In this document: positions 3,786-10,469 of the stretch, one piece after another
Layout of the letters: every line of letters begins with the position of its first letter
Numbering within the stretch: position 1 is the stretch's first letter
IMG/VR virus record: IMGVR_UViG_3300010259_000013
Span: 1 to 18,662 of that record
DNA from: a virus
Lineage: Duplodnaviria; Heunggongvirae; Uroviricota; Caudoviricetes
Strand: one strand, 5' to 3'
Length of the DNA: 18,662 nt
Program-made: the position numbers and the translations under genes
The notes under the pieces: model-generated
The model's input: the letters and a program-made list of their open reading frames with translations, nothing else
Databases searched by the model: none
What the model was told of the DNA's origin: nothing

Positions 3786-6060
3786 AGCCTCCGGGCGTTT
3801 TGTCCCTCCGTCAGCATTTGCTGCAGGCACCGGTAAGGCGTTTACCGGTGCTTATGCATGGAACGCGCCACGCGAGGCTGTCGGGCGCGAAAGACCCCTT
3901 ACACGTGACGAGATGCGTCAGGTGCAAGGTGTTTTATCCACGATTAACCGCCTGCCTTACTTTTTGCGCTCGCTGTTTACGTCACGCTATGACTACATCC
4001 GGCGCAATAAAAGCCCGGTGCACGGGTTTTATTTCCTCACATCCACTTTTCAGCGTCGTTTATGGCCGCGCATTGAGCGTGTGAATCAGCGCCATGAAAT
4101 GAACACCGACGCGTCGATGCTGTTTCTGGCTGAGCGTGACCACTATGCGCGCCTGCCGGGGATGAATGACAAGGAGCTGAAAAAGTTTGCCGCCCGTATC
4201 TCATCGCAGCTTTTCATGATGTATGAGGAACTCTGCGATGCATGGGTTGATGCACATGGCGAGAAAGAATCGCTGTTTACGGATGAGGCGCAGGCGCATC
4301 TGTATGGTCATGTTGCTGGCGCTGCACGTGCTTTCAATATTTCCCCGCTCTACTGGAAAAAATACCGTAAAGGACAGATGACCACGAGGCAGGCATATTC
4401 TGCCATTGCCCGTCTGTTTAACGATGAGTGGTGGACTCATCAGCTTAAAGGCCAGCGTATGCGCTGGCATGAGGCGTTACTGATTGCTGTCGGGGAGGTC
4501 AATAAAGACCGTTCTCCTTATGCCAGTAAACATGCCATTCGTGATGTGCGTGCACGCCGCCAGGCAAATCTGGAATTTCTTAAATCGTGTGACCTCGAAA
4601 ACAGGGAAACCGGCGAGCGCATCGACCTTATCAGTAAGGTGATGGGCAGTATTTCTAATCCTGAAATTCGCCGGATGGAGCTGATGAACACCATCGCCGG
4701 TATTGAGCGTTACGCCGCCGCAGAGGGTGATGTGGGGATGTTTATCACGCTGACCGCGCCGTCAAAGTATCACCCGACACGTCAGGTCGGAAAAGGCGAA
4801 AGTAAAACCGTCCAGCTAAATCACGGCTGGAATGATGAGGCATTTAATCCAAAGGATGCGCAGCGTTATCTCTGCCGTATCTGGAGCCTGATGCGCACGG
4901 CATTCAAGGATAATGATTTACAGGTCTACGGTTTGCGAGTCGTCGAGCCACACCACGACGGAACGCCGCACTGGCATATGATGCTTTTTTGTAATCCACG
5001 CCAGCGTAACCAGATTATCGAAATCATGCGTCGCTATGCGCTCAAAGAGGATGGTGACGAAAGAGGAGCCGCGCGAAACCGTTTTCAGGCAAAACACCTT
5101 AACCGGGGCGGTGCTGCGGGATATATCGCGAAATACATCTCAAAAAACATCGATGGCTATGCACTGGATGGTCAGCTCGATAACGATACCGGCAGGCCGC
5201 TGAAAGACACCGCAGCGGCTGTTACCGCATGGGCGTCAACGTGGCGCATCCCGCAATTTAAAACGGTTGGCCTGCCGACAATGGGGGCTTACCGTGAACT
5301 ACGCAAATTGCCTCGCGGCGTCAGCATTGCTGATGAGTTTGACGAGCGCGTCGAGGCTGCACGCGCCGCCGCAGACAGTGGTGATTTTGCGTTGTATATC
5401 AGCGCGCAGGGCGGGGCAAATGTCCCGCGCGATTGTCAGACTGTCAGGGTCGCCCGTAGCCCGTCGGATGAAGTTAACGAGTACGAGGAAGAAGTCGAGA
5501 GAGTGGTCGGCATTTACGCGCCGCATCTCGGCGCGCGTCATATTCATATCACCAGAACGACGGACTGGCGCATTGTGCCGAAAGTTCCGGTCGTTGAGCC
5601 TTTGACTTTAAAAAGCGGCATCGCCGCGCCTCGGAGTCCTGTCAATAACTGTGGAAAACTCACCGGTGGTGATACTTCGTTACCGGCTCCCACACCTTCA
5701 GAGCACGCCGCAGCAGTGCTTAATCTGGTTGATGACGGTGTTATCGAATGGAATGACCAGGAGGTCGTGAAGGCGCTAAGGGGCGCATTAAAACACGGAC
5801 TGAGAACACCAAATCGTCAGCAAAGAGCCGGAAGCCCGTTAAAACCGCATGAAATAGCGCCATCGGCCAGAATGACCCGGTCGGAACGAATGCAAATTAC
5901 CCGTATCCGCGTTGACCTTGCTCAGAACGGTATCAGGCCGCAGCGATGGGTGCTTGAGGCGCTGGCGCGTGGCGCGACCGTAAATTATGACGGGAAAAAA
6001 TTCACGTATCCGGTCGCTGATGAGTGGCCGGGATTCTCAACAGTAATGGAGTGGAAATGA
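3775..6060 (+). CDS. A: Replication initiation protein A, rolling-circle HUH endonuclease (P2 A-like)
   Basis: ORF 3733-6060. Starting at ATG 3775 (MAVKASGRF...) gives 761 aa, matching P2 A. HUH-type motif PHWHMMLF and paired tyrosines YIAKYISK. In P2 the ori lies inside this gene; I could not place it from sequence. Confidence 0.92.
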   Translation: MAVKASGRFVPPSAFAAGTGKAFTGAYAWNAPREAVGRERPLTRDEMRQVQGVLSTINRLPYFLRSLFTSRYDYIRRNKSPVHGFYFLTSTFQRRLWPRIERVNQRHEMNTDASMLFLAERDHYARLPGMNDKELKKFAARISSQLFMMYEELCDAWVDAHGEKESLFTDEAQAHLYGHVAGAARAFNISPLYWKKYRKGQMTTRQAYSAIARLFNDEWWTHQLKGQRMRWHEALLIAVGEVNKDRSPYASKHAIRDVRARRQANLEFLKSCDLENRETGERIDLISKVMGSISNPEIRRMELMNTIAGIERYAAAEGDVGMFITLTAPSKYHPTRQVGKGESKTVQLNHGWNDEAFNPKDAQRYLCRIWSLMRTAFKDNDLQVYGLRVVEPHHDGTPHWHMMLFCNPRQRNQIIEIMRRYALKEDGDERGAARNRFQAKHLNRGGAAGYIAKYISKNIDGYALDGQLDNDTGRPLKDTAAAVTAWASTWRIPQFKTVGLPTMGAYRELRKLPRGVSIADEFDERVEAARAAADSGDFALYISAQGGANVPRDCQTVRVARSPSDEVNEYEEEVERVVGIYAPHLGARHIHITRTTDWRIVPKVPVVEPLTLKSGIAAPRSPVNNCGKLTGGDTSLPAPTPSEHAAAVLNLVDDGVIEWNDQEVVKALRGALKHGLRTPNRQQRAGSPLKPHEIAPSARMTRSERMQITRIRVDLAQNGIRPQRWVLEALARGATVNYDGKKFTYPVADEWPGFSTVMEWK

Positions 6061-6512
6061 TGGCAAAAATTCACGAGGTAAAGCTGCACGCAAAATATTT
6101 TGACCTTGTGCTGGAAGGAAAGAAACGCGCAGAGTTTCGGAAAAATGACCGTAATTATGAGCGCGGGGACACGTTGATTTTGCATGAATGGGTGCAGGGT
6201 GTGTTTACGGGGCGAAAGGTTGAAGCCCGGATAACAGATGTTACTGACCTGTCAGACTGGCTGGAAGATTATGTCTTGCTAAGTATTGAGCTGCTTAATA
6301 CGGGCGCATATAAGATTGTGAACTGGAAAGAACTTAGTGAGCGTGGCCTGGTATTCAGAATTAATCATGAAATTATGCATCAGCTCGGCCTTGCTGTTAT
6401 GTATGAACCAGAGACGGGGATGTCTGGCGGGGCAATGGTTGCCACGGATGGAGTATGGATCTATTCAGATGAACAGATGGAGCGTGCACAGCAAAACGGG
6501 TGGCTCGGATAA
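6057..6512 (+). CDS. DUF3850/ASCH-like protein
   Basis: Tandem ATGs at 6057 and 6060 overlap the A stop. The N-terminal segment IHEVKLHAKYFDLVLEGKKRAEFRKNDRNYERGDTL resembles the DUF3850 signature. Confidence 0.65.
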   Translation: MMAKIHEVKLHAKYFDLVLEGKKRAEFRKNDRNYERGDTLILHEWVQGVFTGRKVEARITDVTDLSDWLEDYVLLSIELLNTGAYKIVNWKELSERGLVFRINHEIMHQLGLAVMYEPETGMSGGAMVATDGVWIYSDEQMERAQQNGWLG

Positions 6513-6796: not shown

Positions 6797-6954
6797 TTGA
6801 CAGTCATATTTTTACTGCGTTGGTGCTGGTTTTTGACGGTTGAAAGGAGTTAGCCCGGAGAGCAAAAGCCAACAACTTACAAATATTCAAAAGTAAGCTT
6901 CCTGTTGCTAACATAAGGTCGATTTTTTATGTGGATGATGCAAAAAGGATAGCT

Positions 6955-7686
6955 ATGGATATTGTAATCGCTTTTCTATCACTCGCTTTTTTCGTTGCTT
7001 TTTTCATCGGGTTAATCAAGCCATCACTGGTGCGGATGCCAAACCGTAAACGTGCAAGTGCGGTTTATCTCGGAGGTAGTTTTGCATTGAGCATAATTGG
7101 TTCAATACTCTACCCAACAGAAAAAAGCCAGCCAGTTGCTAAAACTGAAACAGCAACCGTAGCAGAACACCAGGCTCAAAAAACATTCGAATATACTGAA
7201 AAAACACTCAAGGAATATCGGAACGAGCCAAAGAAGACTCGACACGATATTGTGAATAGTTACATTAACTTTAAGAAAGTGCCAGTCACCGCATCAGATG
7301 CATTTTATGCCTGCATGAGTGAGTATACATTTACCAAAGATGATGAGTTGAAACTCGGTGATGTTCTTGGGTGGTGCTTTAATGATTATGAAAATGACCC
7401 GAATTCATTAAACAATAAAATCAATCTTGATACATTTCAGAGTAATTTTAGTGGTTGGGATGGTTCTTATCGGCCATTGGAAAAATTAATTAAAGATAAT
7501 ATGAACGATGATTCATCTTATAAACATGTGTCAACGGTATATCATTTGGTTTTGAATAAAGACCCGCACGCCATTGTGAAAACCACGTTTCGCGGCACTA
7601 ATGCTTATGGTGGAGTGGTAAAGCAGACCGTAGCGGCGCGCGTCAACGTGCGAACGGGGGAGGTCGATTCGATACTCGACAATTAA
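6955..7686 (+). CDS. Membrane-anchored cargo protein 1 (two predicted N-terminal TM helices, ~180-aa soluble C-terminal domain), unknown function
   Basis: The ORF-track start at 6931 is GTG. The first ATG is 6955, with AAAGGA five nt upstream. Hydrophobic stretches IVIAFLSLAFFVAFFIGLI and AVYLGGSFALSIIGSILY. AT-rich codon usage unlike the backbone. Confidence 0.7.
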   Translation: MDIVIAFLSLAFFVAFFIGLIKPSLVRMPNRKRASAVYLGGSFALSIIGSILYPTEKSQPVAKTETATVAEHQAQKTFEYTEKTLKEYRNEPKKTRHDIVNSYINFKKVPVTASDAFYACMSEYTFTKDDELKLGDVLGWCFNDYENDPNSLNNKINLDTFQSNFSGWDGSYRPLEKLIKDNMNDDSSYKHVSTVYHLVLNKDPHAIVKTTFRGTNAYGGVVKQTVAARVNVRTGEVDSILDN

Positions 7687-7794: not shown

Positions 7795-8457
7795 ATGCTT
7801 TGGAAAATAATTTCTTTTTTATTAGTTGGTATTTGTATGTTTGCTTTCGGTTTATGGTTAGGCTCTATTCAGGCTGAATGGGCGAAACCAGAGCATAAAG
7901 ATGCTGTTGCTTATTTAGCAATGATCGGAGGATGGGTCTCAGGAATTGCAACGTCAGTCGCAGTAATTATTTCATTGTATGCGACATACCAAGCATCACA
8001 GAATAATGTTGAAAAATTAAGTTTAACCTATAAGCCTTACTCTAGCGTAGACAAAGAAAATTATTGTGCCAATATTGAGGTTGTAAATTTGCGGAGCGTT
8101 CCGGTACATATACAAGAGTTTTGCTTAGAATTTAGTGGGATAAATAATCATTTCAACATAAACGAACTAAAAGCAAATGGGAAGGAGATCCCGTATTCTT
8201 TATACCAAGTAGGAGAGAAATGGGAGTTTGCCTTCTATCCTTTTGCAAAGCCGGGAAATATGAGGTTCTATAAAAGCTTAAGTGAGAATGGTAATCCAAG
8301 TTTTCGTAGTGGTTTCTTTGTGGTTAAAACATCAATGAAACAATACAAATTAAGGATGCCTAATGAGCTTTTGGAAATTATGAAAATTAGCTATGAAAAG
8401 CAAATGGAAATACGGAAGAATTATAAGGAAATGCATGGTAAAGAGATGGGCTTTTAA
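7795..8457 (+). CDS. Membrane-anchored cargo protein 2 (two predicted N-terminal TM helices, ~150-aa soluble C-terminal domain), unknown function
   Basis: ATG at 7795 with GAGG eight nt upstream. Hydrophobic stretches IISFLLVGICMFAFGLWLG and AVAYLAMIGGWVSGIATSVAVIISLYA. AT-rich. Confidence 0.7.
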   Translation: MLWKIISFLLVGICMFAFGLWLGSIQAEWAKPEHKDAVAYLAMIGGWVSGIATSVAVIISLYATYQASQNNVEKLSLTYKPYSSVDKENYCANIEVVNLRSVPVHIQEFCLEFSGINNHFNINELKANGKEIPYSLYQVGEKWEFAFYPFAKPGNMRFYKSLSENGNPSFRSGFFVVKTSMKQYKLRMPNELLEIMKISYEKQMEIRKNYKEMHGKEMGF

Positions 8458-8580
8458 AACGCATTAACAAGCATCAAATTGCATGCGCATCCCTCCCCTG
8501 TTGTGTTTGAGCGCTGCCAGTGATGGTGTGCCTCTGGCGTGTTCGTGCAACTGCATTAAAACCGCCCCATGAAGCGGGCG

Positions 8581-8599
8581 GGCGAGGCGGGGAAAGCAT
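8581..8599. other. cos cohesive-end site (P2/186 type)
   Basis: GGCGAGGCGGGGAAAGCAT matches the 19-nt P2/186 cohesive end as I recall it (the P2 last base may be C). It sits in a GC-rich, backbone-like block upstream of the Q/P packaging genes. Confidence 0.7.
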
Positions 8600-8676
8600 T
8601 GCGCTGGACCTAGAGGCTTTGCTATCTTATTTGATGTTATTGGTATTTATTCAATTGAATGACCGTAGAGGATGAA

Positions 8677-9273
8677 ATGTGTCACATTGAAATTTTTCGG
8701 GAAGCACTAACAGTAAAGGATCCTATATATATATACAGGAAGTATCTTTTAGGGCATGACGTGTGGTATTTTAGAAATAAATTGGGAAAATTAAATTATG
8801 CAGAGGTTTATGATGATCTTAAGATACTTATGTCAGAAAGATTAGGTGTTCACATTAATAATGTTGCTATTGTTGGAAGTGCGAAGTTAGGATTTAGCAT
8901 AACACCCACAGAAGATAAAGCCTTTAGAGAGTTTAACGAAGATAGTGATATTGATATTGTTGTCGTATCCCCTGAGCTTTTTAGAAAGTCTTGGGATGCA
9001 TATCTTGATGTGGCAAAAAGACAAAGAATACCTTATTACTATAAAATCACAAGCAATATATTTAGAAAGTTTGTATCCTTAAAGAATATTGATTATAATA
9101 ATGAATTCTTTCGAGATTGGAAAAACAAAATAGAACCTTGTCAAAAAGATTTGCAGGTTATATATGAAGTACCGAACGAGATTAACTATAGAATATATGA
9201 GTCTTGGGAGGATGTGGAACGCTATCATGTTCAAGGCTTAGAAAAACTTAAAAACTTAATGGGGCAAATTTAA
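8677..9273 (+). CDS. Putative minimal nucleotidyltransferase (Pol-beta-superfamily-like) cargo protein
   Basis: ORF 8659-9273. The better start is ATG 8677 (AGAGGA upstream), giving 198 aa. Candidate NTase motif hhGS...DxD: VAIVGSAKLG (8875-8892) and DSDIDIVVV (8941-8958), with a longer-than-usual insert between. AT-rich. Stop is one nt before the next ATG. Confidence 0.55.
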   Translation: MCHIEIFREALTVKDPIYIYRKYLLGHDVWYFRNKLGKLNYAEVYDDLKILMSERLGVHINNVAIVGSAKLGFSITPTEDKAFREFNEDSDIDIVVVSPELFRKSWDAYLDVAKRQRIPYYYKITSNIFRKFVSLKNIDYNNEFFRDWKNKIEPCQKDLQVIYEVPNEINYRIYESWEDVERYHVQGLEKLKNLMGQI

Positions 9274-9274
9274 A

Positions 9275-10336
9275 ATGAGTATTGTGAGAAACGTTAAAGT
9301 TGAAAGCAGAGATATAAAGTGGGTATCTGATAATTTTAAGTCAGGCGAGTTGGTTATTGATAATTCATTTCAAAGGCGATATGTTTGGGTTAAAAAAGAT
9401 AAAGTATCGTTAATTGAATCAATACTCCTCGGTTATCCTATTCCTGAAGTTTATCTGTGGCAAAATAAGACCGATCCTGAAACAGGGCAGAGAATTCATT
9501 CTATTGTTGATGGGCAGCAACGATTAGGTGCGGTTTTTGATTTTGTAACAGATAAGTTTGCATTAGAAAAACGTTATCTAGAATATAAGGATTCTGATTT
9601 TTCTGGAAAAAAATTTTCTGAATTAGATACAGAACAAAAAGCTGTTATCTGGGGATATGATTTTTCAATTCGATTTATTAATAATGATATAACTATTGAT
9701 GACATTAAAAATTTATTTCTTCGTCTTAATAGAACTAATATAACTCTTAACCCTCAAGAGTTAAGGAATGCGGAATTTAATGGTGAGTTTATTAAATTGG
9801 CGAGCTCTTTGTCGGAACATCAATTTTGGACAGAGTTCAAGGTGTTCAACTCATCTGACTTGAGACGAATGCTTGATATCCAGTTTATTAGTACTATGTT
9901 AATATTTATTAGAATGGGTATTGCTGAAGAAACATCCCAGGCGGCTATTAACAAAGTTTATGATCAATATAATGAAACGTATCCAGAGGCTGAACAAGAT
10001 AAAGAGTTGTTCATGGATTTGCTAAATCTGCTTGCTAATATGATAAGGGGTAAGCAATCTCTTGAATATATTGCAAAAAGAAAAACACACCTCTATACAT
10101 TATTTACATTGTCTTTTTACTTATTTAAAACTGGTATTGATTCTGATAGTGGGTACCAAAATGTAGCTGTAAAATTGGATGAGTGGTTTAATAATTATAT
10201 AAATGAGGTGGATTTTGATGATGAGATGGTTAACGTTTTATTAAATGAATATCGTACGCTTTCCCAAGAAGGCGTGCAGAAAAAGCAAAATAGGCAACGG
10301 AGACTGGATATTTTGAAGGGTTATATAACCATGTAA
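9275..10336 (+). CDS. DUF262 / ParB-like (GmrS-like NTPase fold) protein lacking a recognisable DUF1524/HNH nuclease domain
   Basis: 353 aa. N-terminal FQRRYVW and the hallmark DGQQR motif (9508-9522) of the DUF262 family. No His-Me/HNH motif seen in the C-terminal ~150 aa. Translationally coupled to the upstream NTase-like gene. Confidence 0.75.
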   Translation: MSIVRNVKVESRDIKWVSDNFKSGELVIDNSFQRRYVWVKKDKVSLIESILLGYPIPEVYLWQNKTDPETGQRIHSIVDGQQRLGAVFDFVTDKFALEKRYLEYKDSDFSGKKFSELDTEQKAVIWGYDFSIRFINNDITIDDIKNLFLRLNRTNITLNPQELRNAEFNGEFIKLASSLSEHQFWTEFKVFNSSDLRRMLDIQFISTMLIFIRMGIAEETSQAAINKVYDQYNETYPEAEQDKELFMDLLNLLANMIRGKQSLEYIAKRKTHLYTLFTLSFYLFKTGIDSDSGYQNVAVKLDEWFNNYINEVDFDDEMVNVLLNEYRTLSQEGVQKKQNRQRRLDILKGYITM

Positions 10337-10340
10337 TTAT

Positions 10341-10367
10341 CCCCCCCCCCTAGTATTTAGGAGGGGG
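10341..10367. repeat. C10 homopolymer (10341-10350) facing a GGAGGGGG run (10360-10367); potential C/G stem-loop just 3' of the DUF262 gene
   Basis: Seen in sequence, four bp after the DUF262 stop. Could form a GC stem with an A/T-rich loop. No T-tract follows. Confidence 0.5.
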
Positions 10368-10445
10368 CATGGCTTATTGGCTAAAGTTTTTCAGGTTTAT
10401 TTATTGAACTTGAGAATATACTTATAATTAAACAAGAGGATTATG

Positions 10446-10469
10446 AATAAAAAGCCGCCCGCAGGCGGC
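10446..10469 (-). terminator. Intrinsic terminator for the leftward Q-P late operon
   Basis: On the minus strand: stem GCCGCC-tgcg-GGCGGC (plus 10454-10469) followed by TTTTTATT (plus 10446-10453), five bp after the Q stop. Confidence 0.7.

Follow-up and report, generated by a model that had tools for sequence, protein, structure and literature searches.

A nucleotidyltransferase-like gene coupled to an NsnA-like ParB-DUF262 gene at the cos site of a P2-like prophage: a candidate DNA-modification-linked immune module

The cassette between cos and gpQ

The window analysed here, i.e., the whole 18,662-nucleotide stretch of the IMG/VR record IMGVR_UViG_3300010259_000013, is a P2-like prophage, as judged from its gene order and from near-identical loci in E. 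coli. Between its cos site and the gpQ portal gene it carries a cassette of two genes, named A and B here, whose products are listed in public records as 'hypothetical protein' and 'DUF262 domain-containing protein', respectively. An initial annotation, made from the sequence alone, had singled out the pair as a candidate defence or toxin-antitoxin (TA) module composed of a minimal nucleotidyltransferase (NTase) and a DUF262/ParB-like protein. The features of the cassette and its borders are the following:

8581-8598, no strand assigned: P2-type cos (cohesive-end) sequence GGCGAGGCGGGGAAAGCA, read from the letters; left boundary of the cassette
8605-10448, plus strand: AT-rich cargo cassette of 1.84 kb between cos and the gpQ terminator, delimited by the breaks in homology and by GC content
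8677-9273, plus strand: gene A, encoding a 198-aa minimal-NTase-like protein (probably Pol-beta superfamily) that is in no curated family
8875-8886, plus strand: putative NTase motif G67-S68-A-K70 of A; G67, S68 and K70 kept in at least 99% of 74 homologues from about 10 phyla
8944-8955, plus strand: putative metal-binding motif S90-D91-I-D93 of A; S90, D91 and D93 kept in at least 99%; predicted strand at residues 92-97
9271-9277, plus strand: translational-coupling junction of A and B, read from the letters: TAA (9271-9273), one base, ATG (9275)
9275-10336, plus strand: gene B, encoding a 353-aa NsnA-like protein with a predicted ParB-DUF262 NTPase domain and helical ParBDB domain
9371-9388, plus strand: DUF262 motif I of B (Q33 R34 ... 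W38), invariant in 74 homologues
9509-9523, plus strand: DUF262 motif II of B, DGQQR, the putative NTP-binding loop; D79, G80, Q82 and R83 invariant
10454-10469, minus strand: gpQ terminator, a GC-rich hairpin with a T-run, from a terminator scan and annotated as 'terminator' in P2 AF063097; right edge of the cassette

The insertion of the two genes between cos and Q, which the initial annotation had proposed, was borne out by the limits of P2 homology. Megablast matches to P2-like phages and to about 1,590 E. coli prophages cover only positions 8461-8604 of the window and end at about 8604, and P2 homology picks up again at 10448/10449, equivalent to nucleotide 161 of P2 AF063097, under the annotated gpQ terminator; the 1.84-kb cassette therefore stands in for the roughly 140 bp that otherwise separate cos from the gpQ end. 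The AT-richness and translational coupling of the two genes stood as well, with a GC content of 31-34% over A and B versus 50-58% in the flanking phage genes, and with a single base separating the stop codon of A from the start codon of B. A and B are the two plus-strand open reading frames (ORFs) of the cassette, the competing ORFs on either strand being all 51 aa or shorter. Translation of A likely starts at the ATG at 8677, which has a GAGGA Shine-Dalgarno sequence 4 nt upstream and gives the form annotated in public records, whereas an ATG at 8659 is less likely though possible. At the other end, the gpQ terminator may double as a bidirectional stop for A and B. Directly after the stop codon of B, positions 10337-10375 hold about 10 C residues, then TAGTATTTAGGA, then GGGGG, which might fold into an imperfect hairpin or, as a homopolymer, be prone to slippage.

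The gpA-gpQ cos-proximal region of P2-like phages has been identified by experiment as a hotspot of anti-phage systems (Rousset et al. 2022), and the A-B cassette of the window sits within it. Cassettes of the type 'DUF262 + DNA_methylase + HEPN' are listed in the hotspot table of that study, and these would, by analogy, represent the same design with an RNase in place of the NTase.

Genes A and B and the conservation of the pair

The DUF262 signature that the initial annotation had recognised in B (FQRRYVW, DGQQR) was confirmed by a match to PF03235 (GmrSD_N/DUF262) with an E-value of 3.5e-22. No second Pfam family was matched at E<=1, i.e., neither DUF1524/HNH, whose absence had been noted earlier, nor HEPN. 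The description of B as a standalone DUF262 protein did not hold. Its best PADLOC match is NsnA (E 2.8e-40, residues 7-343 of 353), followed by a far weaker match to PD-T4-2_A (E 5.9e-18), and its DUF262 part weakly matches a PADLOC model of a Type II restriction endonuclease (REase; about 1e-7 to 1e-9). In NsnA, a ParB-DUF262 NTPase domain is joined to a helical 'ParBDB' domain that binds DNA and is common to DndB, GmrSD and SspE (Li et al. 2025); because B aligns with the NsnA model over its full length, it should carry the helical ParBDB domain as well and is not a bare DUF262 protein. When an AlphaFold2 (AF2) model of B (pLDDT 83) was searched with Foldseek, BrxU (E 4e-4), ParB/Noc and SspE (E 6e-3) came out best, and KorB was also matched. 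The function of the DGQQR motif is assigned from GmrSD, BrxU and SspE (PMC10952713, PMC12065111). Across 74 diverse A-B pairs, B has kept QR..W, DGQQR, F..R.N, E162, R198-M-x-D201 and R340/R343. As predicted from sequence and model, B thus has the full architecture of a DNA sensor without DUF1524/HNH, and a nuclease fold was recognisable in neither A nor B with Pfam, PADLOC or structure comparison. A possible HepT-like acceptor in B (K270-x-H272-x-Y274) is kept in close homologues and not across the 74 diverse ones, and was dropped.

For A, the NTase-like motif that had been reported for a partner of about 200 aa is present (VGSAK...SDIDIVVV) and fits the other lines of evidence, whereas the family match is weak: NTP_transf_2 was matched with E 8e-4 and 20.1 bits, below the cut-off of 21. 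The same weak match was obtained for 17 of 44 A homologues and a Polbeta match for 7 of the 44, and the Pfam matches of A are to NTase families only. The motif, written as hhhhGSAK...(22 residues)...SDhDhhhh, maps on the expected strand-helix-strand elements, and G67, S68, K70, S74, F86, S90, D91 and D93 are at least 99% conserved across the 74 pairs. The closest structural neighbours are antitoxins of the minimal nucleotidyltransferase (MNT) type, namely HI0073, the 8xeh MNT and the 5yep MntA; a Foldseek search of A against the PDB returned nothing significant, and a profile sequence search against the PDB gave no meaningful match. PADLOC at E<=1 and NCBIfam gave no match either, and the sole PHROG match was phrog_32008, of unknown function. 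Compared with an MNT, A is about double in size and has additional predicted N- and C-terminal helices. Four weak but concordant lines of evidence place A in the Pol-beta NTase superfamily, and by its motifs it would be a catalytically intact minimal NTase.

Members of the A family were counted in a protein library clustered at 50% identity with a threshold of E<=1e-3, which yielded 1,576 representative clusters, nearly all of them stand-alone proteins of 190-225 aa. Genomic neighbourhoods were taken from a scan of one genome per GTDB species, in which A and B were called with hidden Markov models built from our own alignments. This gave 79 loci from about 10 phyla, including Gamma-, Alpha- and Betaproteobacteria, Bacteroidota, Bacillota, Actinomycetota, Planctomycetota, Nitrospirota, Acidobacteriota, Synergistota and others. 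In 70 of the 79, a B ORF on the same strand starts within a few nucleotides of the A stop codon or overlaps it, and one further locus is cut by a contig end; B directly follows A in all 8 IMG/VR matches, too. Pairwise identities of A and of B co-vary (rho 0.93), and as judged from the sequences, A and B are inherited as one unit. Since the motifs are invariant or at least 99% conserved across the 74 diverse pairs, both putative active sites appear to be under purifying selection.

The exact pair of the window was found only in P2-like prophages of E. coli, always at the cos-gpQ site; it is absent from 5,426 complete RefSeq genomes, yet present in about 100 draft contigs. A 50%-identical pair resides in lambdoid prophages of E. 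coli, between the genes for the DnaB helicase and the antiterminator Q (3 of the 5,426 complete genomes). In some strains this lambdoid copy is flanked by DDE_Tnp_1 and IS3-type (rve) transposases (L008 6001-10987, E. coli CP057738), which suggests mobility of the cassette mediated by insertion sequences (IS). Further copies were seen in a degraded P2 prophage of Enterobacter and beside an integrase and type I M/S genes in Flavobacterium, and most of the homologous loci recovered are on large chromosomal contigs.

Disrupted copies exist as well. A is broken and B intact in three loci, and the reverse applies to one locus. In Pseudomonas neustonica and Massilia sp. H-1, frameshifts in A occur at T9 and T8 runs (L021 ~7416-7450, L041 ~7470-7480), and in a member of the Desulfobacterales A is cut to its last 61 codons (L060 3448-3666). 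These disruptions could be due to phase variation, decay or homopolymer sequencing errors, and with such errors possible, the more frequent breakage of A than of B would speak only weakly for a toxicity of A. An in-frame A-B fusion ORF of 628 aa was found in one IMG/VR contig (L106 5863-7749), which differs from L105 (5863-6896) by two single-A deletions in homopolymers at the junction. A Rosetta-stone argument from this fusion was abandoned: no fusion was present among the best 120 of 845 homologues and none was clear in the top 150 representatives, and the homopolymer indels together with this result mark the fusion as a singleton or sequencing artefact. A-like NTases lacking B (L070, L075, L078-80, L086, L091, L095) form a distant, longer subfamily in other contexts. 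In two of these loci (L080 6797-10359, L091 6812-10425) the longer gene (257-294 aa) overlaps a downstream gene for a DUF499 ATPase of about 920 aa, which follows two very large genes and suggests a cluster related to bacteriophage exclusion (BREX).

Methylase-linked operons and the possible function of the pair

The strongest clue to the function of the pair, which the initial annotation did not contain, is a link to DNA methylation. In 22 loci, mainly of Bacillota but also of Bacteroidales and Sphingobacterium, a C5 cytosine methylase (PF00145, E 1e-50 to 1e-64) is encoded directly upstream of A on the same strand, and the genes often overlap. These methylases form a single orthologous group with a conserved block in the target-recognition (TRD) region, and their divergence follows that of A and B (rho 0.83 and 0.85, respectively). 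A Vsr gene lies within a few genes of the pair in 11 loci, and in two (L044, L045) a Cro/C1-type helix-turn-helix gene (HTH_26), resembling the controller of a restriction-modification (R-M) system, stands directly upstream of the methylase. A Pfam and PADLOC scan of 128 immediate neighbours found just two recurrent families, the methylase (25) and Vsr (6), other defence genes being sporadic. In Lactococcus (L012), an overlapping methylase-A-B operon stands alone between housekeeping genes, and there, as in loci such as L039 and L043-45, no space is left for a further restriction gene. With the methylase immediately upstream, Vsr nearby and sometimes an HTH gene, A-B fills the 'R' position of an R-M-like operon. 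Host Dcm was considered as a stand-in methylase for the copies that lack one, and this idea found no support: the similarity of the operon methylases to Dcm (25-31% identity) is confined to the N-terminal catalytic half, and the target-recognition regions do not align. Methylase-linked B, with homologues in gut Clostridia such as P0552, P0483 and P0520, is abundant in gut metagenomes, where each cluster in Clostridium sp. CAG:149 and Enterocloster clostridioformis comprises hundreds of contigs, for which reason the three-gene system may be common in the human and animal gut.

A conserved two-gene operon in an anti-phage hotspot agrees with the defence part of the initial annotation, whereas the C5 methylase, Vsr and HTH operons of the sister clade point to a restriction-like system that reads DNA modification and not to a plain TA pair. 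The reading favoured here takes the pair as a single conserved functional unit that is carried as prophage cargo and serves as an immune module linked to DNA modification; we assign about even odds (0.5) to it. An anti-phage activity is suggested by the context, i.e., by the hotspot, the cargo region of lambdoid prophages and the proximity of R-M genes.

AbiEii and MenT are NTase toxins of the Pol-beta fold that nucleotidylate tRNA and serve as the growth-arresting effector of defence or TA modules. By analogy with these enzymes and with the DUF262 systems, B would be the sensor and A the effector. B would inspect DNA as a sensor gated by nucleoside triphosphate (NTP), as the corresponding proteins do in GmrSD, BrxU and SspE and as has been proposed for NsnA in Menshen; on binding foreign or wrongly marked DNA it would undergo an NTP-dependent switch that licenses A, and A would then nucleotidylate a nucleic acid or a protein, e.g., tRNA or 3′ ends in the manner of MenT/AbiEii, so that phage replication halts or the infected cell is arrested. 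A is favoured as the effector licensed by B because the partner slot is normally occupied by the effector in DUF262 systems (HNH, HEPN, NsnC). In the sister clade, the dedicated 5-methylcytosine (m5C) methylase would mark self DNA, resulting in an R-M-like operon whose 'R' is A plus B. The copy in the window has no methylase and would therefore read a host or phage mark or respond to another trigger. More specifically, A-B could be a nuclease-free, restriction-like executor, in which the ParB-DUF262 protein reads the methylation state and licenses the NTase, and nucleotidyl transfer instead of cleavage stops the phage; this version is put forward tentatively. Equally tentative are its further details, with DNA ends, tRNA or a replication protein as possible targets and with methylase-less prophage copies reading some other host or phage mark.

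Several points weigh against these proposals. We know of no R-M-like system in which an NTase is the executioner, and alignments of A that included the 74 homologues showed no conserved third carboxylate. The first position of an MNT-like gene and the similarity to MNTs would also be compatible with A as an antitoxin. About two thirds of the loci, the window included, have no methylase: a methylase was never found in the clade of the window (Proteobacteria and Bacteroidota, >=40% identity), and a cognate one is absent from the window and from the near-identical E. coli loci. Outside the methylase clade, defence-gene neighbours are sparse. Within it, an EcoRII-like REase and Vsr lie directly upstream of the methylase-linked operon in one locus (L048 4234-8775), and a second methylase and an EcoO109I-like REase lie next door in two others (L059, L061 3937-8777). 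These three loci are small R-M islands, and given the ordinary restriction genes nearby, their methylase need not serve A-B. The pair is furthermore rare in viruses, with none in 50,697 deposited phages and 8 in 2.9 million IMG/VR contigs, and only 2 plasmids carry it; deposited phages and plasmids were searched with megablast and tblastn.

The main rival to an immune module is a type VII-like TA or abortive-infection pair, in which A, as an MNT, would constitutively nucleotidylate a toxic B and keep it inactive, as in MntA/HepT; B would be a ParB/Srx-fold DNase or an NTP-gated DNA clamp, and the modification would be lifted when the cell is infected or the prophage is lost. This alternative, which we regard as doubtful, would explain why the closest structural neighbours of A are MNT antitoxins, why its S-D-x-D signature is typical of MNTs, and why the usual antitoxin-toxin layout is seen, i.e., an MNT-like gene first, a coupled or overlapping stop-start and an invariant order. 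In addition, the ParB-like domain of DndB has been described as fused to HEPN (Makarova et al. 2013), and the C-terminal domain of DndB is related to the ParBDB domain of B (Li et al. 2025). However, B has no Pfam HEPN match at E<=1, its only H-x-Y candidate (H272/Y274) is not conserved family-wide, and it shares its architecture with NsnA, which is held to be a sensor and not a toxin. Moreover, the breakage of A next to an intact B in L021, L041 and L060 should kill the cell if A were an essential antitoxin, although homopolymer errors are possible there, and a TA pair would leave the co-evolving methylase, Vsr and the C-protein-like gene unexplained. Neutralisation in the MntA/HepT style is possible, with no specific support. 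Since plasmid-partition genes occupy about a quarter of P2-like hotspots (Rousset et al. 2022) and B has a predicted ParB/Srx fold with Foldseek matches to ParB, Noc and KorB, a role in prophage maintenance was also considered, with B as a ParB-type centromere-binding protein. Yet B falls into the DUF262 branch (PF03235, NsnA-like) and not among ParB proteins with an HTH, no ParA partner is present at the locus, B is conserved together with an NTase and a DNA methylase, and most of the recovered homologous loci are on large chromosomal contigs; partition is the most improbable of the alternatives.

An accessory function in DNA modification is unlikely as well. A and B would in that case act on DNA with or after the methylase, like DndB or DpdB, and the prophage would evade restriction or regulate packaging near cos. 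ParB-like ATPases such as DpdB and DndB do serve DNA-modification machineries, one B homologue has a faint DpdB match (E 0.0026), the operon coupling with a DNA methylase is tight in the 22 loci, and the copy in the window adjoins cos; nevertheless, most loci have neither a methylase nor another modification gene, no conserved restriction partner is nearby to read such a mark, and an anti-restriction gene pair would hardly be expected to be missing from every one of the 50,697 deposited phage genomes. In the methylase-linked operons, A-B also takes the place of the restriction gene, as C-M-(A-B)-Vsr. The synthesis of a nucleotide signal, one of the mechanisms floated in the initial annotation, is disfavoured and appears very unlikely. 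By that mechanism, which resembles the cyclic-oligonucleotide-based anti-phage signalling system (CBASS), A would make a nucleotide second messenger once B senses phage DNA, and the NTase active site of A is indeed intact by motif. However, neither A nor 44 homologues matched SMODS or CD-NTase, A (198 aa) matches no PADLOC cyclase model and has a predicted minimal-NTase fold, B has no known signal-binding domain in Pfam, and no conserved third gene that could act as a signal-binding effector occurs at positions -1/+2 in the 79 loci.

DUF262/ParB-like NTPases are emerging as a common sensor of the state of DNA, with examples in GmrSD, BrxU, SspE, Menshen, PD-T4-2 and Dazbog. To our knowledge, the output of the described systems with such a sensor is always a nuclease or an RNase. 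If the immune-module reading is true, A-B would have a chemically different output, with a DUF262 sensor wired to an NTase and, in one clade, also to a co-evolving m5C methylase, and it would offer a tractable case of methylation-based self/non-self discrimination without DNA cleavage. If the nuclease-free version is true, the methylase-linked form would be the first R-M-type operon with an NTase as its 'R'. The pair is widespread, with about 10 phyla and frequent occurrence in gut Clostridia, it is currently invisible to PADLOC as run here, and the E. coli P2 copy is small at 1.8 kb.

Neighbouring cargo and comparison with named systems

The gene order of the near-identical E. coli loci is, from left to right:

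integrase, C and Cox, then the gpA replication protein, then the DUF3850/ASCH gene
two membrane proteins of unknown function, then cos, then gene A and gene B
gpQ portal and gpP terminase (opposite strand), then capsid and lysis genes

The gpA-cos half of the hotspot holds two more AT-rich cargo genes on the plus strand (6931-7686, 251 aa; 7795-8457, 220 aa). Both products have N-terminal hydrophobic segments and match PHROGs of unknown function (phrog_3403, phrog_16957), with no family found in Pfam, PADLOC or NCBIfam; the two genes may form a separate candidate defence or exclusion system. Directly 3′ of gpA, a DUF3850/ASCH-type protein is encoded (6024-6512, plus strand; phrog_1812, with RNA-binding PHROG relatives), and a domain of this type is also listed for a gene of the P2 old-tin locus (Rousset et al. 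2022, supplementary tables).

The statement that the pairing belongs to no named system has survived: no model for A or for the pairing was found in PADLOC 2.0, NCBIfam or Pfam, and an NTase and DUF262 pair was not described in a full-text literature search that included the DUF262 survey of the Menshen study and the DefensePredictor paper with its supplements, although an earlier description is possible.

Taken as a whole, the pair would resemble in its working above all the DUF262 systems made of a sensor and an effector, and in the sister clade a type II R-M operon. Among known systems, the closest likeness of B is to Menshen, where NsnA has been proposed as the DNA sensor (Li et al. 2025): B matches NsnA over its full length, with the same ParB-DUF262 and ParBDB domains and the same three DUF262 motifs. 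The rest of the system differs. The NsnB ABC ATPase (AAA_15 + DUF3696) is not found downstream, where B is followed by gpQ on the opposite strand, and none of the 79 related loci has an ATPase after B. NsnC (inPIN + nuclease) is missing as well, the cassette at 8605-10448 having no third gene, and the partner in A-B is instead an upstream NTase, whereas the Menshen survey makes no mention of a nucleotidyltransferase. PD-T4-2/AbiU-type systems (a DUF262 protein and a HEPN RNase) resemble A-B in being small, in combining a nuclease-less DUF262 protein with a small enzymatic partner, in their residence in E. coli prophage hotspots and in an optional DNA methylase; in A-B, the partner is a Pol-beta-type NTase that matches neither PD-T4-2_B nor HEPN (PF18735), and the NTase gene comes first.

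The DUF262 NTPase of B, including DGQQR, is shared with GmrSD, BrxU and SspE, and the last two are also the best structural matches of B. The logic of reading the modification state of DNA and then switching on an effector would, by analogy, be shared too, and SspE and its modification genes are genetically coupled, as are B and the methylase in one clade. Neither A nor B, however, has a DUF1524 His-Me/HNH domain at E<=1, the effector, if any, would be the separate NTase, and B has 353 aa compared with 560-770 aa for the solved members of this family. The MNT-HEPN systems (MntA-HepT) resemble the cassette in the putative GS...SDxD signature of A, in MNTs as the closest folds, and in a bicistronic arrangement with the NTase gene first, and differ in the spacer from GS to DxD (22 residues in A versus about 10, the MNT pattern being GSx(9-13)DxD), in the size of A, which is roughly double, and in the HEPN partner with its Rx4-6H motif and AMPylated Tyr, as the motif is not detectable in B and Y274 of B is not conserved. 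AbiEii/MenT are set apart by the absence of AbiEii, AbiGii or DUF1814 matches in Pfam and PADLOC, by the smaller size of A and by its other partner, and CBASS by the lack of a SMODS domain in A and of a conserved effector neighbour. Type II R-M systems differ in that no nuclease fold is recognisable in A or B and in that the copy in the window and most other copies have no cognate methylase; what A-B has in common with them is the operon itself, (HTH)-m5C methylase-A-B-(Vsr), with overlapping and co-diverging genes in the 22 related loci.

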